64,000 bases of DNA from an uncultured Polyangiaceae bacterium (lineage in GTDB: Bacteria; Desulfobacterota; Binatia; UTPRO1). Both the position numbers and the translations under genes were made by a program. The DNA is taken from contig CAZWAX010000001.1 of NCBI GenBank assembly GCA_964631985.1, positions 943 to 64,942 on the forward strand, in the 5' to 3' direction. A model generated the notes under the pieces. The model worked only from the letters and a program-made list of their open reading frames with translations, ran no database searches and had not been told where the DNA came from. Positions within the stretch are counted from its first letter, which is position 1; every line of letters begins with the position of its first letter. Below, piece after piece: positions 24,411 through 46,145 of the stretch.

Positions 24411-24616
24411 ACCAGCGGAAAGCAGCGATCGTGCCAGGCGGCGAACCGCGTAGCGAGCATTTCCCGTCGCGGCGATTCGCGGCCCTGAGAATCTCGAGGG
24501 GTTGTCTTCTCATTCGCAACAACACGGCTCGTGGCTGAGCTTGTCCCGAACCAGCCCGCGTTCTGCAGGATTTCCTCGACCTCCGGATCGTCGATCTCTG
24601 CGCGACCCGGAGGGAG

Positions 24617-24662
24617 GATCGAATCGGTTGCGAAAGTGGACGCGCTCGCAACCAATTCGAAC
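24617..24662. repeat. 17-bp imperfect inverted repeat (GATCGAATCGGTTGCGA / TCGCAACCAATTCGAAC, 15 of 17) with a 12-nt loop, at the proximal edge of the A/T-richer island
   Basis: Seen directly. Lies in the non-coding stretch upstream of the DUF2267 gene. Confidence 0.5.
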
Positions 24663-24714
24663 CGCCGCGCAGATTCCGCTTCACTTTTCGCTGCTTGAGA
24701 CGGGGCAGCCGTTT

Positions 24715-24882
24715 CCGTACCAAACCATCGCCGAGCGAGCCCTCCAGCTTCATCGGTTGGGGATGTCCGATAGCTCCATTGCTCGCTCGCTTGGTGTCAA
24801 CGACAAGACGGTCGCCAAGTCGATTCGTTGGATCATAGCGGTGCATACCGGTGCGCATTCAGAGACGCCAGAAGGGGCCTGA
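24715..24882 (+). pseudogene. Isolated HTH fragment resembling a transposase/resolvase N-terminal HTH (remnant)
   Basis: ...YQTIAERALQLHRLGMSDSSIARSLGVNDKTVAKSIRW then stop. It has the HTH_23/IS630-like shape but no catalytic domain follows. Confidence 0.35.
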
Positions 24883-24903
24883 CTTGCGTTAGGCTCCTCC
24901 GCG

Positions 24904-25657
24904 CTAACCGTGTCGGTATGTTTCGATACGAAGCCGCACAGAAACGAAATAAACTCCGGAAGGCGGGTCCAAATCCCGTCGGGGACGCTCGTCGCGTACA
25001 CGGAGACCCTTTCGTGCCATCCCGCCGCGCTGTCGCCGTCTGCGGTCCTCAGCGGCACGCCGACGCGCGGCACTTTCTTTGGTTGCTTGTGCCTCCCGCG
25101 GAAGCTCCCGAAGCATGATCTCGACAAATTTCTGATGCTCGAGGAATGCTCCTGCCGCGAACAATTCCAAGGGATCCGAGGTTTCAAGTGCCGCAGTCGC
25201 AACTGCGGCGACCTGGGCCGGTCGCCATACCGGCCCAAAGTCACCAAATTCAAAGCTCGCTTCCTGTTCCTTCCAGTAGTTCTCCAAGAAGGTCAGGTCT
25301 ACAGGAGGCGGCTGCCCCGACTCGGGCGTTCTCCCTGAATGGCTCAGGGGTTCGCGCTACGGTCGCCGCGCAGCGCTTGCACGCGAGGGTATGCCGGCGG
25401 ATCCGCGTGAACGCTTTGAGCTCTCCTGTCGGAACCCCGCGTTGTGCCTTCTTTGGTTGCATCGGTCCAAGCACGCGCTCCTGGAGAACAAAGTCACCCC
25501 CGAAAAGCGGGAGAGTGTTGCTGAGGTACACGTTAAGGATTCGCCAGGCGTCTCGTCGCCGACCTTGCTTGACTAGCGCTGCTTCCGCGTCGGCGATCGT
25601 CTGTCTCAGGTAGTCGTCCAGGCGTTGACGAGAAGGCCGCGAAGTAAGTTCACGCAT
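24904..25657 (-). pseudogene. Two overlapping same-strand ORFs in different frames (135 aa and 127 aa), possibly one frameshifted gene of unknown function
   Basis: ORFs 25250..25657 and 24904..25287 overlap by 38 nt in different frames. No recognisable domains. Confidence 0.25.
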
Positions 25658-26149
25658 CGAGTCGCTCCGACCGCGGGGTGTGGGGCATCTGCGACGGGCG
25701 ACTTCCCACCTTCGGGGAAGTCCCGAACTGCCGGAGTTTCCTAGAGAGCGGCCACGATAGAGCTGGAGAGCCTAGGACAAACGTGATGGCACCGGCTACG
25801 AGTGCGACGGTAGAAGTCAGACGTTCCCGATCGGGTCTCGGTCCATGGGGGCTTGCCAAGATACAAGGGTTTTTCGGGCACGATCTGGGCGGCGTACGCC
25901 TGTTAGGCGCCCCGCCAAGACCTAAGTATTCATGAGCATCGCCAGGTGTCCGACCCGCGGCCATTGCGATTCCGAAAGTCAGCATTTGACAGCTTTCGGT
26001 AGTGCTCGGTCGCCGGGTCGGTCATCCTGCGGGAAGGAGGCTAGGCCTTGTTGACCGGGGGCGTCAGGCCAGGCGCCACTCGTCACGAGTCCCGGGAGGA
26101 TGGGTCCGGCCCTAAGCAGAGGTCATCGGGTTCCACCCGTATTGCCGGC

Positions 26150-26203
26150 GGCTTCATGGGGGCTTCTCAAGTTTCCGGCTTCATGGGGGCTTTCCGGGAA
26201 ATG
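26150..26203 (+). repeat. Imperfect tandem duplication of a roughly 27-nt unit (GGCTTCATGGGGGCTT... twice)
   Basis: GGCTTCATGGGGGCTT occurs at 26150-26165 and 26177-26192. Non-coding context. Confidence 0.55.
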
Positions 26204-26320
26204 AGGGATTTCGGGCGTAACGGCGGTAACCGTAGTCGCCAAGGCCGGCGGGTCAATCGCAGCCGCGATCCTCGGGGTAAACGCCCTGGACAAACCGCCC
26301 GATAGACCCGTCGGAACAGG

Positions 26321-27019: not shown

Positions 27020-27084
27020 GCACTCGGGTGGCACCTCGAGCGACCGCAGTGGGGAAAGGCGCGGTCGCTCCCGTGCGGCGCGCG

Positions 27085-27474
27085 CTACCACCCGAACCTC
27101 CGAAAGCGCTCGGCCCGCCACTGCTGCACCTTCAGATCGAGCCAGTCGCCAAGGTCGACCATCGCGCGTAGACCCCCGTAGACGCATACGAGCGGCACGA
27201 CGACGAGCGCCAGGAACAGGCCACCCAGCTCACCGGCATGCGCGTGGGTGTAGCGCCCCGCGCGTACGAGGAGGGCCGCTACGCCTTGACCGGGCACCGT
27301 CTCCGTCAGGAAGTGCCACGCGTGAAACGGAAAGGTCACGATGATGAGCACCCAGAGGGCTGCGCCGACACGCTGCAACCAAATGGGAGGTGGCGGCTCG
27401 ATCGCCGCGCCGCACCGCTGGCACCGAACGTCGGCGAGGTACGCCCGCGACTGGCAATGACGGCACCGTTTCAT
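27085..27474 (-). CDS. Small zinc-ribbon membrane protein
   Basis: MKRCRHCQSRAYLADVRCQRCGAAIEPP (CxxC...CxxC zinc ribbon) followed by two predicted TM helices. Confidence 0.5.
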   Translation of the reverse strand: MKRCRHCQSRAYLADVRCQRCGAAIEPPPPIWLQRVGAALWVLIIVTFPFHAWHFLTETVPGQGVAALLVRAGRYTHAHAGELGGLFLALVVVPLVCVYGGLRAMVDLGDWLDLKVQQWRAERFRRFGW

Positions 27475-27872
27475 GGCAGACCCGACGTTAGCGCGCGCAT
27501 GCCCCAGGGGCGAGCCCGATGTCACGCGTTGTCGCGCCACGCTGCTGCGCCGTCCCCCTTATCGCTAAGTTTGGAGGACCTCTCGCATGCCTGTTCCTGC
27601 TTGCCGAAGCAATTGGCGCCGCCGAGCGGCCCCATCATCAGGTGCTCGGCAGCCTCAAAAATTCACCGAGGGCTATGCCGGTCCCTGCCAAGAGGTCATG
27701 AGCACGGATGCCCCACTCTCTCGTCACGCAAGGCGACGCGCTGCGATCGTCACCGGCATGCTCCTAGTAGACCTCACTTTCGACCGAGCACCGTCGTTGC
27801 CGTGCAGGCGACGCTTCAATCGAAGGCCTAGTCGCGGTCTGGTAGGCGGCGTCGCTGGAATCCATTGCTGCC

Positions 27873-29657
27873 TCAGATATCGGCGTAGCCACCCGAGTCT
27901 ATCCACGCTCGGTTCCATGCAATGCGCCATTTGCCTGAAATCTCGACCGTCGATGCCATGATGTCGGGCGACTTGATTCGACGATTGCGCTGCAGTTGAA
28001 CTGTACACACCAGTTGCGGACCCAGTCCGAAACTGCCGAGACGGCGTCTGCGAAAGTCGCGATTGAAGATGGCCACTCGCGCGTAACCGAGCGGTAGGTA
28101 GCGTGCGAGGCTAAAAAGCGGTTGTTCGGCACGAGCCGCACGCATGGCCGCCCTCACGATCCGCTGCCGGTTGGATTGGATCACCGTTGCTGCATTGGCC
28201 GAGTCGAGACCCTCAACGACGACTGCACCCGTCACGACACAGCCCCATGAATTGCGATGCATCTTGGCGTCGCGAGCCGCGATCGTGGCCCGGCCTAGCG
28301 TCTGACTCAGCTGCCTGCGCCCAATCTGCCAGTGCAAGCGAAAACTCTGTACAACCGTGTCGAGCATTCCGAACACCCGGGGCATTGAGGGCATTGGACG
28401 GTAGAAGAACCCGTTTTGTTCGAGAGCCATCGCGAAATCGGGAGCTCTCGTCCCACCGGACTCCCGCGCCTGCCTCAGGCGGCCACCATCGAACGCCGCC
28501 CAGCCTGGCCAGCCCTTTGAGGTCCGTAGGGAAAGGAAGTAGCGGTCAAAACCAGGGGCCAGGCTCTCAGCGAGAGCGGCAGACTGCACGGAAGCCCAAT
28601 GCACCTTGAGCACGTCCCGAGATTCCGGACGGGCGTACACGAGGAGTTGCCTCCCGCTTGATAGTTCGGACTCCAAGCAACCATCGATGGTCCACCACGG
28701 AGACCGGGACTCCTCCATCAATTCTTCGACGAGCAATTCGTGCGGCGTTCGATACCCGAACGAGCTAACAGTCAGCAGGAAGAGCTTCACGGCCGATGCG
28801 ATCGCGTTGCACGAATCAACCATGTCGTCGCAGAGTCGCACAACAGACCGCACATCTAGAGTCTCGGAGTTGCCCTTCTTGTCGCGATATCTGATTTCAG
28901 ACTGCAGGTACGTGATGCCCCCGTGGCCGATCCCGTTCCGAACCGTGTGGCGGTACGCGGAGACGCACGGAGCCAGCGGAGTATTTTTCAGCTCTTCGAC
29001 GACGTTGAATACGTCGAGGCCGTCAGCTTGCTTTCCGCGATCGAGCCTTGAGAAGTGCGCCATGGGCCGCAGAAGAGTCCCGAAGACCCCCTCCACGAGA
29101 CGCAGGTACGTCGGGTGCAGCACCCTATCGATAAGGCCCACTGTCTGGAAGTCGTCACTCTTCTCTAATGGCCGATCGTGCCACGCTTCTGAGTTGATCT
29201 GACGCAGGAAGAGCATTGCCGCGCTTACTTCCGTACCGGAATCAACGAAGTACTGCTGCAGGCCCTTCCGATCAGTAGCATCACGATGCTGTAGCCAGTC
29301 GAAGACGAGGGCATGTACCCGTCGGTCGAAGAATCGTTCGGGGCAATTGAGCAGATAGGGCCTCAGCGCGAGGCACGGTGCCGAGGGATATGACGCAAGA
29401 TGGGGGAACAGGCCCAGGAGACGGAACCGATCATCGGCGTCTTTGGCCGCGGTGAGCGGATTCTTTAGCGCTTCAGTCGTCAAGCGGGCGTTCGATGGAA
29501 AGCACTGCGAGTGCACTGGGCGACGAGACGTGGATCTCCAGCCCGAACCCCAGGGTAGGCAGCAACTGTGGCGAGGCGACGACATGACGTGCTTTCGAGC
29601 GGCCTGTCGGGAAGCTCGCTGCGTGATTTGCCGACAACTGTACGCGGCGCATGTCAA
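27873..29657 (-). CDS. Hypothetical 594-aa protein with a HEPN-like Rx4H motif (VRNGIGHGG); second gene of a coupled pair
   Basis: ATG overlaps the stop of the upstream gene (ATGA at 29654-29657). A/T-richer codon usage than the flanks. No other recognisable domain, no P-loop. Confidence 0.6.
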   Translation of the reverse strand: MTCAAYSCRQITQRASRQAARKHVMSSPRHSCCLPWGSGWRSTSRRPVHSQCFPSNARLTTEALKNPLTAAKDADDRFRLLGLFPHLASYPSAPCLALRPYLLNCPERFFDRRVHALVFDWLQHRDATDRKGLQQYFVDSGTEVSAAMLFLRQINSEAWHDRPLEKSDDFQTVGLIDRVLHPTYLRLVEGVFGTLLRPMAHFSRLDRGKQADGLDVFNVVEELKNTPLAPCVSAYRHTVRNGIGHGGITYLQSEIRYRDKKGNSETLDVRSVVRLCDDMVDSCNAIASAVKLFLLTVSSFGYRTPHELLVEELMEESRSPWWTIDGCLESELSSGRQLLVYARPESRDVLKVHWASVQSAALAESLAPGFDRYFLSLRTSKGWPGWAAFDGGRLRQARESGGTRAPDFAMALEQNGFFYRPMPSMPRVFGMLDTVVQSFRLHWQIGRRQLSQTLGRATIAARDAKMHRNSWGCVVTGAVVVEGLDSANAATVIQSNRQRIVRAAMRAARAEQPLFSLARYLPLGYARVAIFNRDFRRRRLGSFGLGPQLVCTVQLQRNRRIKSPDIMASTVEISGKWRIAWNRAWIDSGGYADI

Positions 29658-30649
29658 TCGCGCACAATCAAGCGAACGGATGGATCGAGCTTCTGAAGAG
29701 ATGCTTCGAGGTCTGCGTACATTGCCCTGACCTCGTCCTGGATGAGAATGGTGTTGCCGGGAGCGTCGGCGTACACGACGATGACTTTCGGCGCATATGG
29801 CCTTCCCTCGTCGCGCTCGAACGCTAGCATCTGCTCGAGAGCCCCAGGCAATCGCGTTGCGAGCGTCCGACGGTACCGCGGAAGGTCGCCCTCAAGAAAT
29901 TTGCCGATGAGAGCTGGCCGACTGGAAGCATCAACAAAGCCGAAAGCGTCGGAAGGCTCGATCTCGATGCGGAGTCTGTAGGATCCCTTGATGTCGCTAA
30001 AGTCGACGGTGGCCGATGTGCCTCCCGAGTTGAGGGCTTCTTCCACGTCAAGGAGAAGCAGCCTGACCGCGTTCGCACCTACCCAGTCGTTCTCGTCGAA
30101 GCGTCGTAGTTCGGGGGCTTCAGTGAGCACGCAGCAAGAACTGCAGAAAAGGGCCGGCTTCGTCACAGCGAGGATCTCAATGTTTTCTCGGATTACCTCA
30201 CTGGCGTCTTGATGGGCGCTCAGGGACTTTACCTCGGCGAGTCCGATTCCTTGCGGCGCCTCAATCTGAAAGTCTGGTCTCTTCCTCTTTTTCTGAGGGG
30301 GAAGGGCAATAGCACTCGAGATTCCGATCTCGTCGCGTAGATGTCTGACGGCGCGGACCTCTGCCAACCACGTACGAATTCGAGCGTCGAACTCGCGCCC
30401 TTGATCGGCGGTCAGGTCAGCAACCAACTCATCCCAGTTCCGGACAAGCTGCGAGGCGGCATCGAGGTTCGCTTCCAGCACGTCCACGCCTACGAACCCG
30501 AGCAGAAGCCTGCGAACAAGTAGATTTCGCAGTGGCGGTACGTTGGAGTCGGTGATTCGTTGCTTCAATGCGTGGCCGATGGTGGACTGAGCGATGGAGC
30601 CGAGCATCGCATGGACGCGAACGGAAAGTTCTTCGGGCGTCATCTCCAA
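29654..30649 (-). CDS. Hypothetical 331-aa protein with a possible PD-(D/E)xK-like motif (RPDFQIE...GLAEVK); first gene of a coupled pair
   Basis: ORF directly abuts the PrimPol remnant. Basic KKRKR patch then PD...EVK spacing typical of restriction-endonuclease-like folds. This rests on motifs only. Confidence 0.55.
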   Translation of the reverse strand: MEMTPEELSVRVHAMLGSIAQSTIGHALKQRITDSNVPPLRNLLVRRLLLGFVGVDVLEANLDAASQLVRNWDELVADLTADQGREFDARIRTWLAEVRAVRHLRDEIGISSAIALPPQKKRKRPDFQIEAPQGIGLAEVKSLSAHQDASEVIRENIEILAVTKPALFCSSCCVLTEAPELRRFDENDWVGANAVRLLLLDVEEALNSGGTSATVDFSDIKGSYRLRIEIEPSDAFGFVDASSRPALIGKFLEGDLPRYRRTLATRLPGALEQMLAFERDEGRPYAPKVIVVYADAPGNTILIQDEVRAMYADLEASLQKLDPSVRLIVRD

Positions 30650-31283
30650 CCAGTAGTAGTCGGAGCTGCGGCGCCTTGTCGATCGAGTTGATTCGCGAGC
30701 GCCGCCATCGGCTCGTCGAGGGCCGAGGCTGCTGCGCCTTCACGCTCGACGGCGACGAAGCACGGTCGAGGACATCGGGGGCCCACATCGACAACGTCGA
30801 TCCGGGTGTAAGGTAGGCGGTATGCGGGGGCTCGCGGTGATCGCTGGCCTCGGGCTTGGTCGGCTGTCGTATACGGCACGCTATTGGCCCTGATCGCGGA
30901 ACCAAGGGCGAGGCGCACGGGTGCCGACCGCCGCCGCCGGTCGCGACGGTGAATGTCGCGGGCAACGTCCCGTGCTCGGGCTCGAAGGCAGCGAGGCTCG
31001 CGTCACCGCCGTGAGGCGGGTCCACGTCGAGGACGAGGAACCCCTAGGTCGTGCCGGTCGAGGTGCCGATGCTCGCGTGCGGCCACTCCGCCCACCAGCC
31101 GCGAATCGTGGCGGCATTGGTGGCGGCCTTCGCCGGCCAGCCCTTGAGCCTGGGGTGCTTGCCGGCGTCCGCGCAAACCTGGCCCTTCCGGCAGCTGCAG
31201 GTGCCTGCCTCGGTGATCTCGCAGACCGGCAAGACGCGCCAACCGCGGGCGGCGTAGCCGAGTGCAACCTCCAACAGCTCCAT
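30650..31283 (-). pseudogene. Bifunctional DNA primase/polymerase (PrimPol, N-terminal domain) gene disrupted by an in-frame TAG and downstream frame loss
   Basis: MELLEVALGYAARGWRVLPVCE...KHPRLKGWPAKAATNAATIRGWWAEWPHASIGTSTGTT-TAG(31044-31046)-GFLVLDVDPPHGGDASLAAFEPEHGTLPATFTVATGGGGRH matches the PrimPol N-domain consensus. Only about 125 codons are recognisable. Confidence 0.55.
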
Positions 31284-31672
31284 GCGCCGAGTCCTTGCTG
31301 CGAAACTCGATGCCGGGCGCCGAGGGCTGCCATCCGCCTACCGTCCGAGGAGATGATCAGGCGCTTCGGTCAGCTCGGAAGCTCGGATGCAATGTTCGGC
31401 TGCGTCAGGCGCCCCAACCAACCGAACTTTGATCGACCCTACATCTGACGCCTTCGTAGCCGAAGGTCTGACCCGCACAACAACTTCATGATGGCAGCCG
31501 CAGTGACGGTCCCCGCCCTCAACGTTCCGGTTAAGTACGCGGACCCGCGCGTTGGTGGAGCTGTTGCGCGCGCGTGGTGCGCCGCGCCTCGGCCGCCGAT
31601 CATCGAGGGCTCGCTGCGATGCCGTCCACCGCGGCTTTTTGCGTAGAGGCCGGAGCACGGTAGGTAGCGGCC

Positions 31673-33034
31673 ATGAGCAGACGCACGCCGGGTGAACAGA
31701 TCGGGCCGTGGACCGTCGTCCGGGATATCGGACAAGGTGGCAACGGTGAAGTCTTCGAAGCGACCGCCGGGGACGGTGGCCGAGTCGCGCTGAAAGTCTT
31801 GAAGGCGATCAATCCAGCTGGGGAACCCTACGGCAGATTCTGCGATGAAGTAGCGATCATGACAAAGGTCGGACCGCACCCCGGGGTGCTCCCGCTCTTG
31901 GCTTCCTCGGTCCCACTTGAGCCCTCGCGAAAGAATCCGCCATGGCTTGCGACCCCAATCGCGGTTGCCATCCGTGACGCCATGACCGACCAGCCGGTCG
32001 AGGTGGTCGTGGAGGCAATCGCTAACGTCGCCGAGACGCTTGCCGATCTTCAAGCGAAGTTCGAGGCGTTCCATCGCGATATCAAGCCGCCGAATCTGTT
32101 CTCGTACGATGGCCGTTGGGTTGTTGGCGATTTTGGTCTGGCAGATTTTCCCCTGAACGCAGGGTTGACCCCGCAGAATCAGAAACTCGGGCCGGTGTTC
32201 TTCATCGCGCCCGAAATGTTGAGGGATGGCTCAGCTCCCAGCCCCACCGCGGATGTGTACTCGCTGGCCAAAACTCTTTGGGTACTAGCTACGGGGCAAA
32301 CCTACCCTCCTCAGGGCGAGCAGCGGATAGATGTCCCCGCGATGACCCTAGCCCACTTTATCGCTCACCCACGGGTGCGTACCCTGGACCGATTGGTCGA
32401 GCGCGCGACCCGGCACGATCCGACTGCGCGACCCTCAATGTCGGAGTTCGCGAGGGAGCTACGCGAATGGCTGAATCCAGTCGGGGCTGTTCCGTCACCG
32501 GGTGACGTGAGCCACCTTCGCGCGCGCTTCGAGGCTGCCGTTGAACCTGCGCGGCGCACCGCGGCCAGCGTTGAGGATTTGCAGGTGCAGGCAATGGAGA
32601 CCTTCAAAGAGATGCGCGTGGCAATGGCGCCTCTCTTGCGAACGGTCCAACAGGTTGTGCCAGCCGCATCGATGGATCCGCGGGACACGATAATTCTCGA
32701 GATTTGCGGGTACATCACTCCACTCAGCGAGCCGAAATTCATTTCGGCGAAGCATCTGACAATCATCGCCAGGCCGATTCCAGGCGATTCTTTCGCGCCC
32801 GTGTTGCGATGTGGCTTTGCACTGCAGCTGCGTCCCGACGGCAAGATGCACATTGGTGGTTCGGTTCTCGTTGGCGGACAAACCAAAGCCGATCAGCAAT
32901 GGAAGGGAATGTTTCGGGAGATGGTGTCAGTAGGGTCGCCGCGAGAACCCAACGCAGCAATGGAATGTGTGGCCGCGGTGCAAGCGGAGCTTCCGAGAGC
33001 CCTGGAAGCCCTTGTCCAAGCGTTGGAAAGGTAG
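31673..33034 (+). CDS. Hanks-type Ser/Thr protein kinase with an uncharacterised roughly 170-aa C-terminal domain
   Basis: GQGGNGEVFEA (Gly loop), VALKVLK (VAIK), HRDIKPPNL (catalytic loop), VGDFGLADF (DFG), APE. The C-terminal part has no recognisable motif. Confidence 0.8.
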   Translation: MSRRTPGEQIGPWTVVRDIGQGGNGEVFEATAGDGGRVALKVLKAINPAGEPYGRFCDEVAIMTKVGPHPGVLPLLASSVPLEPSRKNPPWLATPIAVAIRDAMTDQPVEVVVEAIANVAETLADLQAKFEAFHRDIKPPNLFSYDGRWVVGDFGLADFPLNAGLTPQNQKLGPVFFIAPEMLRDGSAPSPTADVYSLAKTLWVLATGQTYPPQGEQRIDVPAMTLAHFIAHPRVRTLDRLVERATRHDPTARPSMSEFARELREWLNPVGAVPSPGDVSHLRARFEAAVEPARRTAASVEDLQVQAMETFKEMRVAMAPLLRTVQQVVPAASMDPRDTIILEICGYITPLSEPKFISAKHLTIIARPIPGDSFAPVLRCGFALQLRPDGKMHIGGSVLVGGQTKADQQWKGMFREMVSVGSPREPNAAMECVAAVQAELPRALEALVQALER

Positions 33035-36699: not shown

Positions 36700-37946
36700 C
36701 ACTCGTTGCCAGACGCCAACCAGCCGGATCTGAACCGTCTGGTGAAGCGAATATCGAACATGCGCTCCATCTGCCGCAGCCAAGGACCCTGGAGCGGGTG
36801 AAGATAGTCCCTCGGTTCCATCAGCGCCCCGACAGGTGCGAAGGCATATGTGAAGTCGCGCCAGGCGTCGGTCAGCTGCGGGCCCGCAGGCGCCCCCCCG
36901 CGCGGAAGCGTCTCGTCGCCAGGGGAGAAGGCGTACTCGAAGGGTTCGCACCAGGACGCTTCAAGGTAGCGCTCTCCCGTCACATAGTCGTCGGGCGAGG
37001 CGATAACCTTCTGGCGCATCTCCCGCGCCGCCGCTGAAAACTCACCCACGACATTGCTGTAGATGTTGGCGAGATCCTGGTGGTCCTTGCCATAGAGGGC
37101 GATGACCCTCTCCAGGGCGTGGACGGCATCCTTCGCGAAGTAGTCTCCGAAGAGGTTGAGATTCTCCTCGACACTCGTCCACGAGCCTTCGACGGCGCGT
37201 TCCATCGCGGCGAGCAACTCCCCAGGCTTCTTTTCCAGCATGCTGCCCATCATTGTGGCGAACGTGTCGTCGTGCGTCCGATCCGGCGCGGGCAAGTTCG
37301 GATTGCTAAGGCAGAGCTGGATGAAGATGTTGAAGAGTGTCGCCAGCCGGAAGCGCTCGGCCGCTCTGACGCGCGCAAGAAGTATCCGGAGACAGTTGAG
37401 CGGCGTCCCGTACCGAGGGTCTCGCGCGAAGTCTGCGACCAACAGATCGAAGGCCCGACCCTTCAGATCTCGCAACGCGATTGTGAGCTGCATGAGGGTA
37501 GCCGATGCTTCGAAGACGAAACGGGCGGCCCTGGAATACCACAGGTACTGGCGTTCGAACCCGTTGTGCAGATCGAGCATCTCCTGGGTTACGCCAATCG
37601 TCTCTGTCCCAAGGGGAAGCGGCAGATGTCGCCCCCGATTGCGGCCGAGCCTTTTGGCGAGCAGCAGCGTGATCGCGCTTCGTCCGAGGGCCGAGCCGAA
37701 GAGGTGATTTCCGACGGGGGTCAGAAGAACGTCGTGAAAGTGGCGTCGTTCATGGACCCTGGTCGTCATCCGGTGCGCCAGATCGGCCTGTTCCGCGTCG
37801 GAAAGATGCGCCGCCGCGGCGAACGTTTCCGCGGGTGGTTGTCCGGTGGCAAGGAGTAGATCGACGTCCTCCGACGCCTTCCGGTTCAACAACACTGCGA
37901 GCGAGGGGACGTGAAGAAGGCCGTAGCGCTTGTTGCAGAAGTCCAA
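36699..37946 (-). CDS. Hypothetical 415-aa alpha-helical protein; third gene of the STAND-linked operon
   Basis: Long ORF whose only in-frame start near the 5' end is TTG at 37946, 15 nt after the upstream stop. The start is uncertain and no domain is recognised. Confidence 0.5.
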   Translation of the reverse strand: MDFCNKRYGLLHVPSLAVLLNRKASEDVDLLLATGQPPAETFAAAAHLSDAEQADLAHRMTTRVHERRHFHDVLLTPVGNHLFGSALGRSAITLLLAKRLGRNRGRHLPLPLGTETIGVTQEMLDLHNGFERQYLWYSRAARFVFEASATLMQLTIALRDLKGRAFDLLVADFARDPRYGTPLNCLRILLARVRAAERFRLATLFNIFIQLCLSNPNLPAPDRTHDDTFATMMGSMLEKKPGELLAAMERAVEGSWTSVEENLNLFGDYFAKDAVHALERVIALYGKDHQDLANIYSNVVGEFSAAAREMRQKVIASPDDYVTGERYLEASWCEPFEYAFSPGDETLPRGGAPAGPQLTDAWRDFTYAFAPVGALMEPRDYLHPLQGPWLRQMERMFDIRFTRRFRSGWLASGNE

Positions 37947-37961
37947 AGCTTCGGGTCCGCG

Positions 37962-38303: not shown

Positions 38304-38388
38304 CGTGTCCCCATCTCATAGGAGTTCGATCCGAGGTTCAACTGGCGGCGGCATGGAGCCGACGGATATTGCTTCGGGAAGGAGTGCC

Positions 38389-41300
38389 TCAAAGACTCCC
38401 AGCGTCAGGATCGGGCGTCATGATAGGCCACGGTCGACCGGAGGCAAGATCGGGATGGCGCGGCCCGGCTTCCGGTGAGCCGTACTCATCCCAGATCCGG
38501 TCTACTTGGTTCAGGCAACGCGCGGCTGCGTCCAACGCCCCACCGTCTGTCGTCAGTGCAAGAAGTTTCTCGCGAAGTTCAACGGCAGGGACGGGAACAA
38601 TCGTGAACGCCCCCTTCAAATTCTCGGAAGGTACATGCTGGGTGACCACGCGCCCGATCGCCCGCCGCGAGATGAGAGAGCGCCAACCTCCCTCAAAGCT
38701 GAGTAGAAGTAGTACGCCTTCGGCATCGGGATTCTCCACGACGGCCTCGGCGAGCATTGCTAGGCCCGGCGTTGATGCGCCGTTGCTGAGGAACCCATAG
38801 ACGTGGGCACGCAGCGCAGGATGTGCGTCGAATAACTCGCCGATGTGGCCGGCCATGTGCCAGCGATCGAGGTTCCCGTCCGCAAAGGAACCGCCTGCAG
38901 CCAAGTCCACAAAGCGGCGCGCGGCGGAGAGGGTTCTCCGGCGCGTGACGGCGTCGCGCCACACGTGACTGTCATAGAAGGCGGGACAGGCTTCAGCAAA
39001 AGCAAAGAGCGCGTTTTCAGCGTCAACACCAGGTGCTTCGCCGAAGGCACGGATCATTTCCTCCAAACGATCGGGCCTTCGTTGCTCCTCCGGCAGGGTC
39101 TGAACAACAGTGAGCGCCTCAGCTGGAAAATTCGTGAACGGCAGTAGTCGCAGCCATTCACTGACTTCGTAGCCATCACTCAGGATCCAGCTTTGGGTTC
39201 TGCCAGCCTCCATGACCTCAGCGAGGCCTGTCTTCACGACGCCGATGTCGACGATGTGACCGGACAGCACTTGGTTCAGAAGTAGTGCGGCCCGTAAGCG
39301 GCGTGGTGCGATGGCGATCAGACTTTGAACCGTCGCATCACGCTGGCCATGCGGCAGCCGCGATGCCACGACGCCAAGCGCGAGGCCGAGCTTTTTCCGC
39401 TCTTCCGGCACGCCGTCGGCGATCAGTGGCTCAAGCGCTGCGAAGATTGTCTCCGCTTCCACCGAAGTCGCTGAAGGATTGGCGGCGCGAGCGGCTCTTT
39501 TCTCTTCCACGCGTGAGAAATCCGGACCGCCGAAAACCCGCCTGCTGTTCGGCGGATCGTTCGCCTTCTGCCATCTGGCCGCGAGGACGTGCGCGGCAGC
39601 TTCGCCGAAATGGTCGTCGATAAGATACTCTCGCATCAAAGCGGCTGTCTCCGGAGCGTCGATGGACAGGAACGCGTGCTGGTACTCATTCGTATGCGGT
39701 GTGATGGCTTCGGTCGCGGCTTCGCTGTGGGCTCGCCCACCGGCTGCTTGCGCTTCGGCACGGAAGGCGCGATAGTGGCGGAGGTTGTCGTCCAGCAAGC
39801 GCCTCAACAATGGCAGCAGCGCGATAGAGGGGGCCTGGCTTGCTAGCGTTGCGATGCTAGCCGTCTGCCAGCGCTTCGCGGTACCGGAAGCCAGCATGCG
39901 GTCGCCCCACTCCTGGGCGATTGCCTGAATAGTCGCACGTGAATCAGCGTCGAACGGTCTGCCGTGATCGCCCTCCCCACTTGGATGACGCGAGAGAAGC
40001 CCTGCCAAGCGCGCCATTTGGTCGTTATCGGCTTGCAGAGAGCGGGCATGGATGGCGGCAACGAGACTGGCGCCGCGGGCATGCGCGAGCCGACGCAAAA
40101 GGGTGTGGTAGCGGTCACTTGCGGCTTGGTCGTATGTACCGTCCACATTCAGCCGCGCCCGTGCTTCGTTCAGTGCCTCGATCATGCGGCCGACGGCCAA
40201 CGGTCCGAGCGCGGAAGCCGCGGCTTCTCCGCGGTCATGCGGCCGGGTGGCGTCCATCAGCGCAAGTTCCAGTAGTGCGTCGTCTTCGAGACTGAAACAG
40301 GCTGCAGCGAGAATATCATCGGCTCCGTAGAATAAGGTTCGCCCGGTGCGCACGCGGGTGAGGAGGCCGCTCGCGACAGCACGGGGATAACGCTGGCGCG
40401 CTTCGTAGACGAGATGAACCGCCGCGTCCCGCCCCTCGGTTTCCATCGACCCGATGAAGTCGGCCAGCTCTAAAGCCCGGTCTTCGGCAAAATCCGAGTA
40501 CACGATCGAGTGAAGCCGGTCGTAATCCGAAACTCCTGTCGCGATCTCCCGCTCGCGCGCAGCGGCGAGGCGCTCCTTGACGCGCTCGTCGGGAACGTTG
40601 TGGACGAACCTGTTGCGCGCAACCAGGTCGATGGTCTCGTCGCCAGCGTACCGCAGCACGTCGGCGACGTGTCGATCCGCGCCCCGAAAAGCCAGCGCCT
40701 CAACCGTCGAGACTTGAACTTCAGTCGCGGGATCATCGCTTGCGATAGCGGTCGCGAGATCGAGACCGTCGATGCCGCTGTTGGATGCCATCTCGTGCAG
40801 CAGGACGGTCCGCACCTTGGCCGACAGCCCACAGATCCTCGTCACGGCATCACTCCCGAGGATTGACGGTCGGAACCGGCTGCAGTTGCGCAGCGCCTTG
40901 AGACTCGTCTGATCGTCCTCGTGCGTGATGAGCGGCCAGACCGCGTCAAGGAACTCAGGGCGTCCCGACGCGAGCATAAAACGCAATGCGCGATCCACCT
41001 TGCCCGGCGTATGCCAGCGAGCGACGAGCCCCCGGATTGTTGGGGCGATGGGCGCCCACACTTCCTCCGTCGCCCTGAAGATCATCTCGGCCGCGAGAAT
41101 GGGATCGACTTCGAACGCCGAGAGAATGGCCTTGCCGCACACGGCCTGCTGGTGCGCATCGCTGCGCGCCATACGTTCCACCGCGAAGAGAATGGCTTCT
41201 TCCCATATGGGAAGGTTGAATACTTCAGCCTTCAGCGCCTCGCGGCTCCTCGGATCATCGGCCGCCGCGGTAGTCCGGCGCTCTACGGAGTGAGAGGCAT

Positions 41301-42729
41301 ACCACTCCTGAAACTGCTGGTGCTGGAAAGAGTAGCCCAGCGTGCCGCCCGTGCGGATCAGAACATGATTGCTGGCGAGCACGTCCAGCACGTCGTCCGG
41401 CTGGGACGGGATAGTGATCTGCCCGTCCCCGATCAGCGTTGCCTGGGTTTGAGAGACGGTCCGCCGGGCGTTCGTGTCGGCGATAGACGTGTTCTGTGTC
41501 CGCGTGGCGAACACGGCGAGACACTCCAGATGATCCTGCTGGAAACCATGCACAACGTCGCGCAGCGTCTCGGCGCGACGGGCATCAGTTTCGTGCACAG
41601 TCACGAAGTGCCGCAGGAGTTCCTCCTTGGTCGTTGGGAAGGGCGCGCCTTCAGGAAGGGAGAGCAGTGCGGTGAGATAGAGTGGGATCGTTACGAGCTC
41701 GCGGACACCAGGCGTGCGCCAAGCCTGATCGACGATCCTCAGGCCTGCTTCGCCGCGCATCGCGGCGGCGATCTGCGTTTGCTGCTTTTGGTTGAGCGGC
41801 AGGAGATCGACGCGCATCCCGACGAAAGGAACGTCGAGGGCGTGCTTGCGGGTCGAGACGATGAAGCCGAGCTCAGGTAGCTCCGCCATCAGGCGATCGA
41901 CCTGTACGCGCGCTCGCGTCCGCCCGTCCGGACTCAATTCGTTCCAGCCGTCGAGCAGCAGGACAACACCGGGTTTGGCGGCGACTGCACGGAAGTCGTC
42001 TTCCGATATGGCCTGGAACCCCTGACGAGTGAGGATGGACCCTAGCAGTGACAACGTTTGCGTGGCCCAATCGGCGAGCGGGATGATGATGGGCGTGCCT
42101 CCGGCGTCGGCGATGAGGGCTTGGGCGATCTGGAATAGTGTCGTCGTCTTTCCTGTGCCGGGTCCGGCGACGAGGATTAGATCGTCGAGCGACGTGACGA
42201 CGCGCGCGAGCGCGGTTGTCGTCGCAGGCTGACCAAAGCCTTCTACCTCCAGCGTGAGCGCTACGGCACTGGATGGCCATTTGGTTGTGCGGCGGAAAAC
42301 AGAGAGATCCGCCTCAGCAGCGGCGCGAAGACGATCCGCCGGTTGCCCGACGGCAATAGGCAGAGGCCCACGGGACGCTTCGTTCTGCAACACGCGGCGT
42401 CGAGCGTCGTCTTCCGCTAGCTTCTTCCATTCGCGTAGACGCTCGATGGTGAATTCTGGATCCTTATCGTCGATAGCCTTGCCGTGATTGCGACACATCC
42501 AGATGCCGTTGCTTGCGGAACGGCGTTCCGCGGATGACATGTTTGCGTCACCGCGGGGGCTGCGGTCGGATTCCACGGCGCCGATGATGTGCGCCGCCGT
42601 GCCGAGATTGATTTCACCGCCGACGGTCAGCGCACGACAAGATGGATAGGAGCAAAGCCAGCCCGCGCGCTTAGCGATCTGGGTCTTTATCCGGTCTGTG
42701 AACTCGTCTCTGTTTCTGTTTCCTGGCAT
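38389..42729 (-). CDS. STAND-class NTPase: N-terminal HNH-like nuclease motif, NACHT NTPase module and long C-terminal HEAT/ARM-like repeats (antiviral-STAND/Avs-like architecture)
   Basis: HNH-like segment: C-x2-C (CSYPSC)...AAHII...N-x4-C-x2-H (NGIWMCRNH). Walker A: LILVAGPGTGKTTTL. NACHT-type Walker B: VVLLLDGWNEL. Roughly 900 aa of helical repeats follow. Confidence 0.8.
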   Translation of the reverse strand: MPGNRNRDEFTDRIKTQIAKRAGWLCSYPSCRALTVGGEINLGTAAHIIGAVESDRSPRGDANMSSAERRSASNGIWMCRNHGKAIDDKDPEFTIERLREWKKLAEDDARRRVLQNEASRGPLPIAVGQPADRLRAAAEADLSVFRRTTKWPSSAVALTLEVEGFGQPATTTALARVVTSLDDLILVAGPGTGKTTTLFQIAQALIADAGGTPIIIPLADWATQTLSLLGSILTRQGFQAISEDDFRAVAAKPGVVLLLDGWNELSPDGRTRARVQVDRLMAELPELGFIVSTRKHALDVPFVGMRVDLLPLNQKQQTQIAAAMRGEAGLRIVDQAWRTPGVRELVTIPLYLTALLSLPEGAPFPTTKEELLRHFVTVHETDARRAETLRDVVHGFQQDHLECLAVFATRTQNTSIADTNARRTVSQTQATLIGDGQITIPSQPDDVLDVLASNHVLIRTGGTLGYSFQHQQFQEWYASHSVERRTTAAADDPRSREALKAEVFNLPIWEEAILFAVERMARSDAHQQAVCGKAILSAFEVDPILAAEMIFRATEEVWAPIAPTIRGLVARWHTPGKVDRALRFMLASGRPEFLDAVWPLITHEDDQTSLKALRNCSRFRPSILGSDAVTRICGLSAKVRTVLLHEMASNSGIDGLDLATAIASDDPATEVQVSTVEALAFRGADRHVADVLRYAGDETIDLVARNRFVHNVPDERVKERLAAAREREIATGVSDYDRLHSIVYSDFAEDRALELADFIGSMETEGRDAAVHLVYEARQRYPRAVASGLLTRVRTGRTLFYGADDILAAACFSLEDDALLELALMDATRPHDRGEAAASALGPLAVGRMIEALNEARARLNVDGTYDQAASDRYHTLLRRLAHARGASLVAAIHARSLQADNDQMARLAGLLSRHPSGEGDHGRPFDADSRATIQAIAQEWGDRMLASGTAKRWQTASIATLASQAPSIALLPLLRRLLDDNLRHYRAFRAEAQAAGGRAHSEAATEAITPHTNEYQHAFLSIDAPETAALMREYLIDDHFGEAAAHVLAARWQKANDPPNSRRVFGGPDFSRVEEKRAARAANPSATSVEAETIFAALEPLIADGVPEERKKLGLALGVVASRLPHGQRDATVQSLIAIAPRRLRAALLLNQVLSGHIVDIGVVKTGLAEVMEAGRTQSWILSDGYEVSEWLRLLPFTNFPAEALTVVQTLPEEQRRPDRLEEMIRAFGEAPGVDAENALFAFAEACPAFYDSHVWRDAVTRRRTLSAARRFVDLAAGGSFADGNLDRWHMAGHIGELFDAHPALRAHVYGFLSNGASTPGLAMLAEAVVENPDAEGVLLLLSFEGGWRSLISRRAIGRVVTQHVPSENLKGAFTIVPVPAVELREKLLALTTDGGALDAAARCLNQVDRIWDEYGSPEAGPRHPDLASGRPWPIMTPDPDAGSL

Positions 42730-42870
42730 CGGGCAGCGCGCTACTCAAAGGTTCGCCCGGCGACCCGGGCGGGGGCGACTATACCAGTTCGGGATGTAGG
42801 CTCGAATGGAGAGCTTCACACGCTTCGAACTTCTCGATTGATCTACAGGGTGATCAGGCAAACGCGATGA

Positions 42871-43059
42871 CGGTACCGCCTGGCCTATCACCGCATGAAG
42901 GCCACCGAGGAGGCGCCGCATCAGCTACTGGTCGTGGGCGTTCGCTACGGGGACAAACTGTCGCGCGACGAGGGTCGGTGGCGCATCACCGACCGGATCG
43001 TTCACATGGACTGGCAGAGCCGGCACCCGGTGGCGGTTCCGGCGCTGTGCAGAGACTGA
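42871..43059 (+). pseudogene. C-terminal fragment of an NTF2-like/SnoaL-like protein
   Basis: ...HQLLVVGVRYGDKLSRDEGRWRITDRIVHMDWQ has the characteristic SnoaL/DUF4440 C-terminus. An in-frame stop lies immediately upstream, so no N-terminal half exists. Confidence 0.4.
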
Positions 43060-43147: not shown

Positions 43148-43208
43148 GCCATCAACGGTCGACGAGTTCGCCTGCCGATACGGGGCCGGCGAGGGACGTT
43201 GTGGAATC
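43148..43208 (+). repeat. Direct repeat copy A (about 60 nt), downstream of the 701-aa gene
   Basis: GCCATCAACGGTCGACGAGTTCGCCTGCC...CGAGGGACGTTGTGGAATC. The first 29 nt match copy B at 26 of 29. Confidence 0.5.
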
Positions 43209-43323: not shown

Positions 43324-45429
43324 CTAACCTTCTTCTGCGCACGACGGACGTGGCGTAAGATAGACCGCAACAGGTGACCACTTGGTGATGATCTGCGTGC
43401 AGTCATCGTCCAAGACTTTCGAGCACGGGCACCCCCGATACGGCGTCGTGCACAGCGAACACTCACTGTCGTCGACGATCATAGCTACCGCAGGAACCAC
43501 GCATCCGGCTCGCGCGGCTTCGGCAGGGTAGGTCTTGTCGTCGGGGTCGGGTAGGTACTCGACGAGGACGTTCTTCCCGACGACCTTGAGATCGTACAAC
43601 CCACGTTCGAGCTCGAGGCGGTCTATCTCAAGGACTCTGTTAAGGGTCAGGCACTCGAGTGCATCCGGTCTCGGCTCATCCGAGTCGCCATCGCCAACGA
43701 GCTTCTTGAGGGCGTCGCCCAATCGCACGGGATCGCCGAGCAGCGGGGCTACGACTGTAGACCACTGAGGCAAGAACTCGGCCACGTCGTCGAGGTGTCC
43801 GCACACGGAAACAATCAAAGCCGAGCAGCCAATGGGATAGGCGATCGAAAATCCGATCAAGCGATCTGACCGGCGCACATACCGCCGGACGAGTTCCTGC
43901 AGAGCCTCTATGGTCGTCGCTACCGCGGAGACCTCTGGATGCCATACCGTTCCGAAGTTCACGTCCAGATCCTCGATCTTTACCAGCAGGACGTCAGCGT
44001 TCAACTCGATCCGCATCTCGTGACGCGCGACCGCCTTTACGAGTTCCAACGACTCCGCCTCCACGAATGGACCTCCGCCATCGCCGATCTCCAATTTGCG
44101 GGCTGGCAAGATGTGCAAGCGGTCGCGCGCGAGAATCCGCTCGAGTGGAAGGAAACTCATGCCTGCTCGTATTCCTCCCCCCCGCGCAATGCGGAACGAG
44201 GCCGGAGAATCCTTACTCGGGGCATCACCAGCTTCTGGCGCTGGGATGGGGCCGAACTGCGCGGCCGGTGGTGCGCCCAGATATTCGCCGACGAGATGGT
44301 TGTCGCGGAAGTAATCGGAGAGCAGACGTTTCCAGAGCGCGACAGGGATGTCTCCGTCGACGCGCCACAGCTTCAGATAGTCTGGCGCGCGGTTCGCCTT
44401 CGAGAGGTCTTTGCCTCGTCGATCTGTGAGGCCGTCCTCATCGTAGATCCGCACTGCCCCATCGAAGTGATCGAGGTTGCCGTTCGGTGCGACAATCGAA
44501 TGTGCGTACCGACACGCGTATCGGACTCCATCCACTCCGAACGTCGAGGCCGCGCGGACTTCCTCCACGGCGAAGATCCGCTCTCCATCGCGGTCGCCCC
44601 ATCGGAAGTCTGTGAATTCAATTCCGCTGTAGAAGCGTTCGGCGTCGGTCGCCCGGTGTTGCGACACCCCGGCGGGAATGGTCGACAGGTCGTCGTTGAA
44701 CTCAGGACCCCACCAATACTGTTGTTCCATGATCGGCCTGTAGCTCTCGGCGAGGCCAACCATGTCGGGATCAAGAGCGACACGTGGACGAAGAGCAGCG
44801 GGCACGCCCGCGAGTGCGGAGAGAAAAGGGGCATTCAGGGAGTTAACTGGCACACCGCTCCGGCGAAGATCGCGGTGGGCGAAAAGGGCTAGGGGTCCGT
44901 GTCTGTATACCCCCGGACCAATGACGTCCACCTTGCTCAGATCGATGAGTCCGTCGCCGTCCAACTCCTTGAAGACCGCGGCGGCCACCCTCGTCGCAAT
45001 CCCGATATTGAACACGGCCACGCATTCCGCGACCAACAGCTGTAGGTCCCCACTAAGGCCGGCAGCGAGGAGCTTCAGCAGGGTCGCAAATTCGTCCTGC
45101 CGGGCGACGATCTTCTTCCCGCGAAACTCGGTCAATGCACCGCCGAGGTTTGCCCGCTCCTCAGGCGAATCAGCGACAAGCATCTGAGCGGTGAGACGAC
45201 AGACGCTCGGCGCAAAAAACACCGCCGTGGGATATGTCCAGCCGAATGGCCGACTCATATCGTGAGAGACGAGGCCCGGAATCCCCGCCTCCCAGTTCTC
45301 CTGCAGCGCCTGCACCAGCGCACCGGGAGAGAATCGCGTGTTCGCCCGCGTAAGTTGGTCGGTGGCGAGGGTCGCGATCAACTTCATGGCAGCCGAGGTC
45401 ATACCAGACGGGCGCGAACGATTCCGCAT
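43324..45429 (-). CDS. Hypothetical 701-aa protein with a C-terminal Cys cluster (SECSLCTTPYRGCPCS), flanked by direct repeats
   Basis: Uninterrupted ORF in the A/T-richer island. No recognised domain. The start is uncertain because no SD precedes any of three N-terminal ATGs. Confidence 0.5.
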   Translation of the reverse strand: MRNRSRPSGMTSAAMKLIATLATDQLTRANTRFSPGALVQALQENWEAGIPGLVSHDMSRPFGWTYPTAVFFAPSVCRLTAQMLVADSPEERANLGGALTEFRGKKIVARQDEFATLLKLLAAGLSGDLQLLVAECVAVFNIGIATRVAAAVFKELDGDGLIDLSKVDVIGPGVYRHGPLALFAHRDLRRSGVPVNSLNAPFLSALAGVPAALRPRVALDPDMVGLAESYRPIMEQQYWWGPEFNDDLSTIPAGVSQHRATDAERFYSGIEFTDFRWGDRDGERIFAVEEVRAASTFGVDGVRYACRYAHSIVAPNGNLDHFDGAVRIYDEDGLTDRRGKDLSKANRAPDYLKLWRVDGDIPVALWKRLLSDYFRDNHLVGEYLGAPPAAQFGPIPAPEAGDAPSKDSPASFRIARGGGIRAGMSFLPLERILARDRLHILPARKLEIGDGGGPFVEAESLELVKAVARHEMRIELNADVLLVKIEDLDVNFGTVWHPEVSAVATTIEALQELVRRYVRRSDRLIGFSIAYPIGCSALIVSVCGHLDDVAEFLPQWSTVVAPLLGDPVRLGDALKKLVGDGDSDEPRPDALECLTLNRVLEIDRLELERGLYDLKVVGKNVLVEYLPDPDDKTYPAEAARAGCVVPAVAMIVDDSECSLCTTPYRGCPCSKVLDDDCTQIITKWSPVAVYLTPRPSCAEEG

Positions 45430-45713
45430 GCGCGCGGCAACGGTAGAGAAGCCTCCAGCGCCGGACGTGATCTTGGCTGGCTGCGAGGCAGCTCACCTGT
45501 CCTGTCGTTCCGATCCTCCAACTTCCGGATGCCAGATGGGACCGCCACAACGGATGAGACACCAGCTAGGGAGTTCGAACGCGGTACTGAGGTCGCAGCC
45601 GACCCCAGCACCTCGAAAACGGTTGCCTTGACGCAGAGGTGGGCCAACGACGTTTCGAGATCGCCGGGTTGGCCTTCCGCGAAGAGGTCCTAGAGGCTCG
45701 TTTCGTGTGCAAG

Positions 45714-45773
45714 GCCATCAACGGTTGACGGTTTCGCCTGCCTCCAAGGGTTCTCGAGGGACATTGCGGGATC
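45714..45773 (+). repeat. Direct repeat copy B (about 60 nt), upstream of the 701-aa gene
   Basis: GCCATCAACGGTTGACGGTTTCGCCTGCC...CGAGGGACATTGCGGGATC. Same orientation as copy A. Confidence 0.5.
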
Positions 45774-45854
45774 TTGGTGAGACGCGGCCACCGCGATCAT
45801 GTGCGCGATTTCCCTGGTCGTGCACGCTTCTTCGACAGGGCGGTGCTAGCTGCG

Positions 45855-45886
45855 TGAGTGGGTTCAAATCCCGGCGGGTTTGCACC
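45855..45886 (+). tRNA. tRNA-derived 3' fragment (T-arm GGGTTCAAATCCC plus acceptor-like tail); not a complete tRNA gene. Possible attachment-site remnant at the island boundary
   Basis: GTGGGTTCAAATCCCGGCGGGTTTGCACC. No D-arm or anticodon-arm partner sequence can be found upstream. Confidence 0.4.
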
Positions 45887-46145
45887 CTATTATTCCCGCA
45901 ATTCCCAATCCTTGTGAACGTAAAGTGGGCTGCGTAGCCCGCGGGATTGCCGGGGGTTTCCTCATCCGCGAACGATCTTCAGCATCGGCTGGTAGCGCCT
46001 TGCGGCTTCTTCTGGAAGCTCATCGAAGGTGGGGGCCCGACTAGCGTGACGCTCGCATCATTGCTGCTCTCCGGGTTGTCAGGTCAGAAGTGTTTCTTCG
46101 CTCGCCTGCCCACCGATCCTCGTAAGGAGAGACTCGCCGTAGCGG

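Follow-up and report, generated by a model that had tools for sequence, protein, structure and literature searches.

The 64,000-nt window analysed here is a stretch of DNA from an uncultured Polyangiaceae bacterium (GenBank assembly GCA_964631985.1, contig CAZWAX010000001.1, positions 943 to 64,942). It contains a segment at 24,411-45,890 where defence-like genes, orphan genes and gene remnants lie together (Table 1). The original prediction, made from the sequence alone, regarded this segment as an old integrated element that had become a defence island. Crude open reading frames (ORFs), guided by the GC content at third codon positions (GC3), were searched with Pfam, PADLOC, NCBIfam and PHROGs. 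Moreover, 148 stop-to-stop fragments of at least 40 aa in the six frames of 24.4-38.4 and 42.7-46.15 kb were compared with Pfam in a scan for remnants. The matches to Pfam and PADLOC confirmed that intact defence-like genes are present. The segment combines at least two recognised defence genes with remnants of mobile elements; these include the kinase, the HNH effector with its NACHT domain, the PDC-S48 and NCAB2 matches, and the stumps of PrimPol and a helix-turn-helix (HTH) protein. Five orphans (547, 329, 332, 415 and 692 aa) are interspersed with them.

Table 1. Features of the 24.4-45.9 kb segment, with coordinates in the 64-kb window
Feature	Position	Strand	Remarks
Probable C-terminal HTH stump (transposase/resolvase-type), without catalytic domain	24736..24879	+	Pfam HTH_23
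Two overlapping orphan ORFs in different frames, possible frameshifted gene	24750..25657	-	From ORF lists
tRNA T-arm-like 19-mer, left copy GGGTCCAAATCCCGTCGGG	24965..24983	+	Two mismatches to the copy at 45860
Three same-strand copies of TCATGGGGGCTT	25843..26192	+	In a stretch of ~660 nt without convincing gene
151-aa zinc-ribbon and membrane ORF	27085..27540	-	Weak DZR matches; GC3 0.80; common to the unrelated contig L015
547-aa orphan, downstream gene of a two-gene pair	27873..29516	-	No match in Pfam, PADLOC, NCBIfam, PHROGs or PDB; GC3 0.69
329-aa orphan, upstream gene of the 547+329-aa pair	29654..30643	-	No match in Pfam, PADLOC, NCBIfam or PHROGs; GC3 0.66
PrimPol pseudogene	30891..31283	-	In-frame TAG at 31044-31046; GC3 0.91
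453-aa Ser/Thr protein kinase, PD-T4-6/MAD6 type	31673..33034	+	Pfam Pkinase 2e-19
571-aa protein with weak Tic110-like repeat	33198..34913	-	Pfam Tic110 2.5e-8; PADLOC PDC-S48 1.8e-10; GC3 0.84
Probable stump of an ion-transport channel, N-terminal, with only the first transmembrane helices	35037..35267	+	Pfam Ion_trans; GC3 0.83-0.84
332-aa orphan adjoining the 415-aa gene	35701..36699	-	No family match; the neighbouring module in L015 lacks it
415-aa protein of a rare family, HExxH-FHD and ExxA motifs	36699..37946	-	Putative zinc metallopeptidase
113-aa EACC1-like small protein, central hydrophobic helix	37962..38303	-	In every copy 5' of the gene with the HExxH motif
1446-aa bacterial NLR-related protein (N-terminal HNH nuclease, NACHT NTPase, C-terminal NCAB2)	38389..42729	-	
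Probable NTF2-like (SnoaL_4) C-terminal stump	42871..43056	+	Pfam SnoaL_4; GC3 0.85
61-nt imperfect direct repeat, left copy	43148..43208	+	Right copy 45714..45773 (+); brackets the 692-aa gene
692-aa orphan	43324..45402	-	No match in Pfam, PADLOC, NCBIfam, PHROGs, PDB or IMG/VR; GC3 0.71
tRNA T-arm-like 19-mer, right copy GGGTTCAAATCCCGGCGGG	45860..45878	+	The "tRNA 3' fragment" of the original prediction

In its composition, the segment is foreign when compared with the left flank. The GC content is 0.689 at 1-21,236, 0.658 at 21,237-24,410, 0.628 at 24,411-45,890, and 0.634 at 45,891-64,000. The mean gene GC3 is 0.89 ± 0.02 (standard deviation, n=10) in the left flank, 0.78 in the five small genes at 21.3-24.4 kb, 0.74 in the segment, and 0.72 in the right flank. 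Gene GC3 differs between the left flank and the segment (Mann-Whitney p = 2e-4), and the comparison of the segment with the right flank gave p = 0.36. Codon counts follow the same direction. From the left flank to the segment, the synonymous share rises from 0.15 to 0.39 for GAA (Glu), from 0.10 to 0.22 for AAA (Lys), and from 0.09 to 0.23 for TTT (Phe). Per 1000 codons, GAA increases from 6.0 to 23.2, AAA from 2.1 to 5.0, and TTT from 2.9 to 8.6; these codons are therefore used two to four times more often. The profile is not uniform, and the predicted shift in GC and in the AAA, GAA and TTT codons was borne out against the left flank. The predicted limits at 24.4 and 45.9 kb were not, because the drop starts at about 21.2-21.3 kb (GC3 falls from 0.89 to 0.73-0.83 at 21.3 kb) and the right side never reverts. 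Likewise, the flanks had been described as roughly 70% GC, which holds for the left one but not for the right one. A reading of the sequence alone can spot such an island yet misplace its edges.

Inside the segment, gene GC3 spans 0.66 to 0.91, and pieces of two kinds alternate along it. Pieces with a GC3 of 0.80-0.91 include PrimPol, the 571-aa gene, the ion-channel and SnoaL stumps, the EACC1-like gene and the 151-aa gene. The cassettes with a low GC3 (0.66-0.71) are the HNH-NACHT-NCAB2 gene, the PD-T4-6-like kinase, the 547+329-aa pair and the 692-aa gene. Because GC3 is so variable inside the segment, and because modules are shared with independent relatives, several separate acquisitions are indicated.

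One such module is the gene of the 1446-aa protein, in which a Walker A NTPase stands between an N-terminal effector and a C-terminal sensor-type domain, as in the bacterial NLR-related proteins (bNACHT). The NCAB2 match lies above the Pfam cut-off (1.6e-26, 93 bits). The NACHT match lies under it (2.3e-4, 21.5 bits; cut-off 26.7), and the Walker A motif GPGTGKT is readable in this region. The HNH part was recognised by PADLOC models of HNH effectors with E-values down to 2.7e-19, and by an HNH endonuclease in the PDB (9om4, 1.9e-5). HNH DNase effectors and NCAB domains have both been listed for the bacterial NLR-related proteins (Kibby et al., bioRxiv 10.1101/2022.07.19.500537). The window protein resembles the bNACHT proteins of that study in that one polypeptide carries the N-terminal effector, the NACHT NTPase and the C-terminal NCAB-type domain, and in that the family is widely spread by horizontal transfer. 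It differs in its sub-threshold Pfam NACHT match, and, within the checks made, its clade has no assay of phage defence. By analogy with its family, the protein would sense a phage cue, oligomerise and release the HNH DNase.

The NACHT protein has 1366 homologues. Full-length homologues with 60-66% identity occur in Burkholderia, Ralstonia, Halomonas, Sphingopyxis and Bradyrhizobium, that is, in Beta-, Gamma- and Alphaproteobacteria. This identity is closer than that of some core-gene relatives, as judged by the flanking 1256-aa protein (55-76%). The gene also has 78.7% nucleotide identity to two contigs from JGI and Logan (L013 and L014) over 38,404-42,740 only, and the homology ends no more than 15 nt from the gene ends. 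The closest NACHT homologue, with 75% amino-acid identity, is found in L013 (955-2669). Its neighbours there are a DarT-Macro (DarTG-like) pair, an MPTase-PolyVal fragment, Mob_CxxC and helicases. The L013 locus is another defence or mobile island, with different neighbours from those in the window.

The second recurring module consists of the 113-aa and 415-aa genes, which have 89.4% nucleotide identity over 36,727-38,341 to contigs L015-L017 from three other samples. In L015, an unrelated contig of 74% GC from run SRR30616677, the module occupies a patch with a GC of 0.59-0.64, right after two-component and efflux genes with a GC of 0.70-0.77. The small gene precedes the 415-aa gene in every copy, and the pair is kept in L015-L018 and in one JGI contig. 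A mosaic origin of the segment follows directly from the recurrence of the NACHT gene (79%) and the EACC1-like module (89%) in unrelated contexts. Judged from these alignments, both are demonstrably mobile.

L015 also shares the 151-aa gene with the window. The sequence at 27,075-27,538 has 81% nucleotide identity to L015 8101-8561 and is collinear with the 113+415-aa module. Between the two lie 1.7 kb of different cargo in L015 (a 214-aa protein and an HSDR_N_2 protein) and 9.2 kb in the window. Seen as a whole, L015:4823-8561 and window 38,341-27,075 have two collinear shared segments with a differing middle, a hint that both have one backbone, with a defence slot that can be exchanged. At the other end of the module, the homology to L015 stops 28 nt before the stop codon of the 415-aa gene (36,699-36,727, minus strand). 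The last ~8 codons differ, and the start of the 332-aa gene abuts there. Because the homology stops at this point and the 332-aa start adjoins it, a recombination breakpoint inside the 3' end of the 415-aa gene is indicated.

Published EACC1 systems consist of two parts, a pro-toxin of the single-helix type and a caspase-like protease (Kaur et al. 2020, PMC7159879; Evans et al. 2025, bioRxiv 10.1101/2025.11.14.688446). The window pair is similar to them: the small 5' gene encodes one central hydrophobic helix rich in small residues, a larger 3' gene follows close behind, and the two are kept together across divergent copies. Its differences concern both proteins. The EACC1 match of the 113-aa protein is sub-threshold (E=0.005, 17.2 bits; cut-off 23.6 bits); a 38%-identical homologue in L018 gave no EACC1 match at E <= 0.1, and the AlphaFold2 model of the 113-aa protein was unusable (pLDDT 45). 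The 415-aa protein has an HExxH...E signature and matches no Pfam family. A caspase or cysteine-protease domain, the mark of the 3' gene in EACC1-protease systems, was not found in it, nor was any convincing fold match. In its family, H69, D72 and E146 are invariant, and H65 and E66 are nearly invariant (HExxH-FHD...EASA), which is a gluzincin-like signature. The family is very rare, with 3 word-indexed matches among 5.8e9 proteins and 66 representatives among 1.84e9. By family resemblance, the pair may be a membrane toxin licensed by a protease. A more specific proposal, which we put forward only tentatively and consider rather unlikely, is that the pair at 36,699-38,303 is an undescribed variant of the EACC1 protease-effector defence module, in which a zinc metallopeptidase, and not a caspase-like protease, would license the pore-forming toxin. 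This pair is the only mildly novel item of the island.

The 453-aa kinase was matched by the PADLOC models mad6 (1.6e-28) and PD-T4-6 (5.8e-26), and the models were covered over nearly the full kinase length. It also matched a serine-threonine kinase of PHROGs, the sole PHROG match in the segment. The kinase domain therefore fits both PADLOC models for the PD-T4-6 and MADS MAD6 kinases; however, the NCBIfam MAD6 score (64.8 bits) is far under the 460-bit cut-off, and no methylation-associated partner genes lie near the window kinase. The C-terminal half of the protein (180 residues) has no characterised domain. Based on its family, the kinase would phosphorylate host or phage proteins and so abort the infection. 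The PDC-S48 model matched by the 571-aa protein is a model of defence candidates. Taken together, the families of these genes suggest a role in defence.

The fragment scan added several families to those found in the ORFs: Prim-Pol (two fragments), SnoaL_4, Ion_trans, HTH_23 and some zinc-ribbon noise. A PrimPol gene with an in-frame TAG had been predicted, and the Prim-Pol profile is indeed split by the stop codon; profile positions 1-54 (51 bits, 2.9e-13) and 57-107 (30.5 bits, 5.8e-7) match on its two sides, and the match stops after position 107 of 158. The HTH, ion-channel and NTF2-like genes, which had been described as decayed, show the expected truncated shape but with sub-threshold scores. 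The HTH stump matched HTH_23 with E=0.0034 and 17.6 bits (cut-off 24.6 bits) and HTH_SB with E=0.05. The ion-channel stump covers positions 4-64 of the 241 in Ion_trans (E=1e-3, 18.8 bits; cut-off 25), and the SnoaL_4 stump covers positions 91-125 of 126 (E=1.9e-4, 21.8 bits; cut-off 24). One gene stump, PrimPol, is therefore solid; the three others are probable. The possible frameshifted gene at 24,750-25,657 (minus strand) had no Pfam match and no homologues, and its ORF at 25,250-25,657 had no PHROGs match either.

The segment was further compared with relatives of the host. The nearest GTDB relatives are metagenome-assembled genomes labelled Polyangiaceae, Binatia, Thermodesulfobacteriota or 'delta proteobacterium', with 55-76% identity in the 1256-aa flanking protein; a scan of JGI metagenomes with DUF2267 gave relatives of 49-74% identity on short contigs. 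To the left of the 1256-aa gene, the relatives keep the order of HEAT, thiolase, penicillin-amidase and GSDH genes (L003 lacks the thiolase gene). The left flank contains genes of ordinary metabolism, namely alcohol dehydrogenase, GntR-aminotransferase, glucose/sorbosone dehydrogenase, penicillin amidase and thiolase. The synteny breaks at 21.2 kb, not at 24.4 kb, and the genes at 21.3-24.4 kb (LolA-like, CBS, Pyridox_ox_2, Usp and DUF2267) lie beyond the break. None of the tested genes of 21-64 kb was found within 1-10 kb beyond the break in the relatives, which also share nothing with each other there; their right-hand neighbours are ordinary genes of native GC3.

The non-coding region upstream of the 1256-aa gene (21,140-21,205, minus strand; tttttcgttgacc...tcggctctaatgc) is conserved in one relative (L002:905-965), where the protein is 75% identical. 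It is likely a promoter or leader, and contains the last conserved bases before the variable region. In the same relative, a tRNA-Arg(ACG) gene (L002:704-777, corresponding to about 21.24-21.35 kb of the window) lies 236 nt upstream of the conserved 1256-aa gene, exactly at the synteny break. An origin of the island at this tRNA-Arg was considered, but the window has no trace of the 3' end of the L002 tRNA-Arg, and the island is not visibly a tRNA-Arg island.

The right flank (46,146-64,000), of equally low GC3, resembles a copper-handling accessory cluster. It encodes two multicopper oxidases (one with HMBD), AraC, a fatty-acid hydroxylase, a Kelch/galactose-oxidase-like protein, a methyltransferase, an outer-membrane efflux protein, DUF5666 and DUF2946. 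Exact-protein look-ups of a multicopper oxidase and of a 701-aa ORF found nothing, the start codons being probably wrong. The NACHT protein occurs in identical form on an NCBI contig of 70,795 nt and on an independent Logan contig (SRR13723395_10949, 31,530 nt). The part of the Logan contig that was read corresponds to 14,655-34,410 of the window and matches it with 100% identity. The far end of this contig was placed at 46,184 by gene layout. This point is 38 nt inside the 3' end of a multicopper oxidase, in conserved copper-site codons, and a paralogue lies at 61.7-63.5 kb. The paralogues probably broke the k-mer graph here, so that the contig end would be no biological boundary. Strain heterogeneity at the island edge was rejected as its cause in view of these conserved codons and the window paralogue.

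The original prediction also placed a tRNA 3' fragment at the right boundary. The 19-mer at this place has a degenerate direct copy with two mismatches near the left end of the segment, on the same strand and 20.9 kb apart; ~0.04 matches to the 19-mer are expected per shuffled window. There are 25 exact occurrences of GGGTTCAAATCCCGGCGGG in IMG/VR, and in 15 of these it covers the T-arm of a called tRNA and the beginning of its 3' acceptor strand. In all 15 tRNA cases, the 19-mer is on the tRNA strand and ends 5-7 nt before the tRNA 3' end. The right copy itself lacks a 5' half and has a mismatch in the first pair of the T-stem. Rfam gave 0 matches at the gathering threshold in the window, and none at E <= 10 in 45,600-46,100. 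The boundary fragment thus has the form of a tRNA T-arm and acceptor, but no tRNA model detects it. It is plausible, though unproven, that the pair is a tRNA-derived scar of attachment (att) sites.

The best explanation of these data, which we consider probable, places the segment in a larger region, flexible or acquired horizontally, which extends from ~21.2 kb to at least 64 kb in the chromosome of an uncultured high-GC bacterium. The segment would be the decayed part of that region in which defence genes are concentrated. It would not be one intact element but a patchwork from several separate acquisitions, probably including an earlier tRNA-targeting element. Low-GC3 cassettes would have been pasted between and into older pieces of high GC3, which would have left truncated genes behind. 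The PrimPol pseudogene, the HTH stump and the pair of T-arm-like repeats fit a former tRNA-targeting integrative element, which would have lost its integrase and would now be immobile. We infer the order of events, the former integrase and the defence functions. The idea of an old integrated element turned into a defence island is therefore retained as to the mosaic, the foreignness relative to the left flank and the defence genes, and the contents had on the whole been described correctly. A single element would be at best half of the history, and neither the tRNA association nor the limits of the segment are established.

Several observations weigh against the favoured explanation. No catalytic domain of an integrase, recombinase or transposase was found in the 148 fragments of 24.4-38.4 and 42.7-46.15 kb, nor in the fragments and ORFs of 46-64 kb; the Pfam scan of the latter region gave no mobility genes at all. 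ARAGORN found 0 tRNA genes in the window, and relaxed thresholds gave noise only, so that, with the Rfam result, no intact tRNA or tmRNA lies beside the segment. Neither copy of the 19-mer sits in a tRNA, although insertion into a tRNA gene should leave one intact tRNA. The similarity of the two copies ends at 19 nt, without extension on either side, and a window would contain the T-loop motif alone 0.34 times by chance. Of the four stumps, three (HTH_23, Ion_trans and SnoaL_4) are below the Pfam thresholds. There is no composition edge at 45.9 kb, and the composition deviates relative to the left flank only, not on both sides as in a tRNA island. Among the relatives found, none is close enough to show an empty site; even the best are only 55-76% identical in the flanking protein, and they lose the synteny at 21.2 kb. 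Many of these points suit a different reading, in which no discrete integrated element ever existed. The host would be a bacterium with a large genome, and the region from 21.2 kb to past 64 kb a flexible arm of its chromosome. Genes and small cassettes would come and go there by illegitimate recombination, and the 19-mers would be coincidental or unrelated scars. This reading accounts for the missing integrase and tRNA, for the chance level of the T-loop motif, and for a segment and right flank that are not distinguishable in GC or GC3. It also accounts for module homologies that end at or inside the gene ends without shared flanks, and for relatives that generally lose synteny at 21.2 kb and have ordinary genes there. 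However, the PrimPol and HTH stumps are typical cargo of integrative elements. The 19-nt pair is on one strand, brackets the remnant-rich segment and is hardly expected by chance. Moreover, two segments are collinear between L015 and the window while the middle varies, as in a common element backbone. A flexible arm without any integrated element is thus a serious competitor, but clearly the less probable one.

An error of assembly or binning, by which two organisms were joined at a chimeric junction at ~21-24 kb, is very unlikely. In its favour, the source is metagenome-assembled, the GC3 falls sharply at 21.3 kb, and the Logan contig ends at 46,184. Nevertheless, one contig from the separate Logan assembly of SRR13723395 spans the composition step within its fully identical part, and the region upstream of the 1256-aa gene, conserved with L002 up to ~21,205 of the window, runs straight into the next gene. 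The Logan end, lying in an oxidase with a paralogue, has a trivial cause, a break of the graph. A degraded prophage or phage satellite seems just as improbable, even though PrimPol is common in satellites and prophages and the T-arm-like repeats resemble att sites. PHROGs matched only the kinase; no capsid, terminase, portal, tail or integrase domain was found with Pfam in the open fragments of at least 40 aa in six frames, nor any phage structural domain in 46-64 kb. A megablast search of the whole segment against plasmids and phages (50,697 phage records) gave no match, and the 692-aa and 547-aa proteins have no relatives in IMG/VR. The prophage reading was rejected, as there are no structural, packaging or lysis genes and no similarity to known phage DNA.

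The favoured explanation, a decayed patchwork with a probable earlier tRNA-targeting element, can be compared with known kinds of islands. Like the tRNA-targeting islands and the PrimPol integrative elements, the segment deviates in GC and contains PrimPol (as a pseudogene), and short direct repeats similar to a tRNA 3' end are found at both of its ends. Unlike them, the window has no integrase and no intact tRNA at either end; its repeats are 19 nt with 2 mismatches, and the right end is no composition boundary. The similarity to defence islands and variable hotspots lies in the cluster of a bNACHT, a PD-T4-6/MAD6-like kinase, a PDC-S48-like gene and an EACC1-like module. Orphans, pseudogenes and mobile-element stumps are interspersed in both, the composition is atypical, and the cassettes have other neighbours elsewhere. 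The window differs from such islands because it has no recombinase or identifiable carrier and is embedded in a larger low-GC3 region with a copper-oxidase and efflux cluster. As such the island is ordinary, since decayed defence islands in which cassettes have been swapped are common. It is nevertheless a clean case of mosaicism at the level of cassettes, since the breakpoints against unrelated contigs could be located within a few nt of the gene ends. The 547+329-aa pair, the 692-aa and 332-aa orphans, and the EACC1-like/HExxH module are reasonable candidates for defence screens.

Two further sets of repeats lie in the segment. The 61-nt direct repeats have a local alignment score of 50, which was reached by 0 of 300 shuffles; this suggests that the 692-aa gene came in as a cassette or through recombination of the two repeats. 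For TCATGGGGGCTT, 3 matches were found against 0.2 expected, and three were reached by 0 of 100 shuffles. These copies may be iteron- or operator-like, and might represent a relic origin or a regulatory site.

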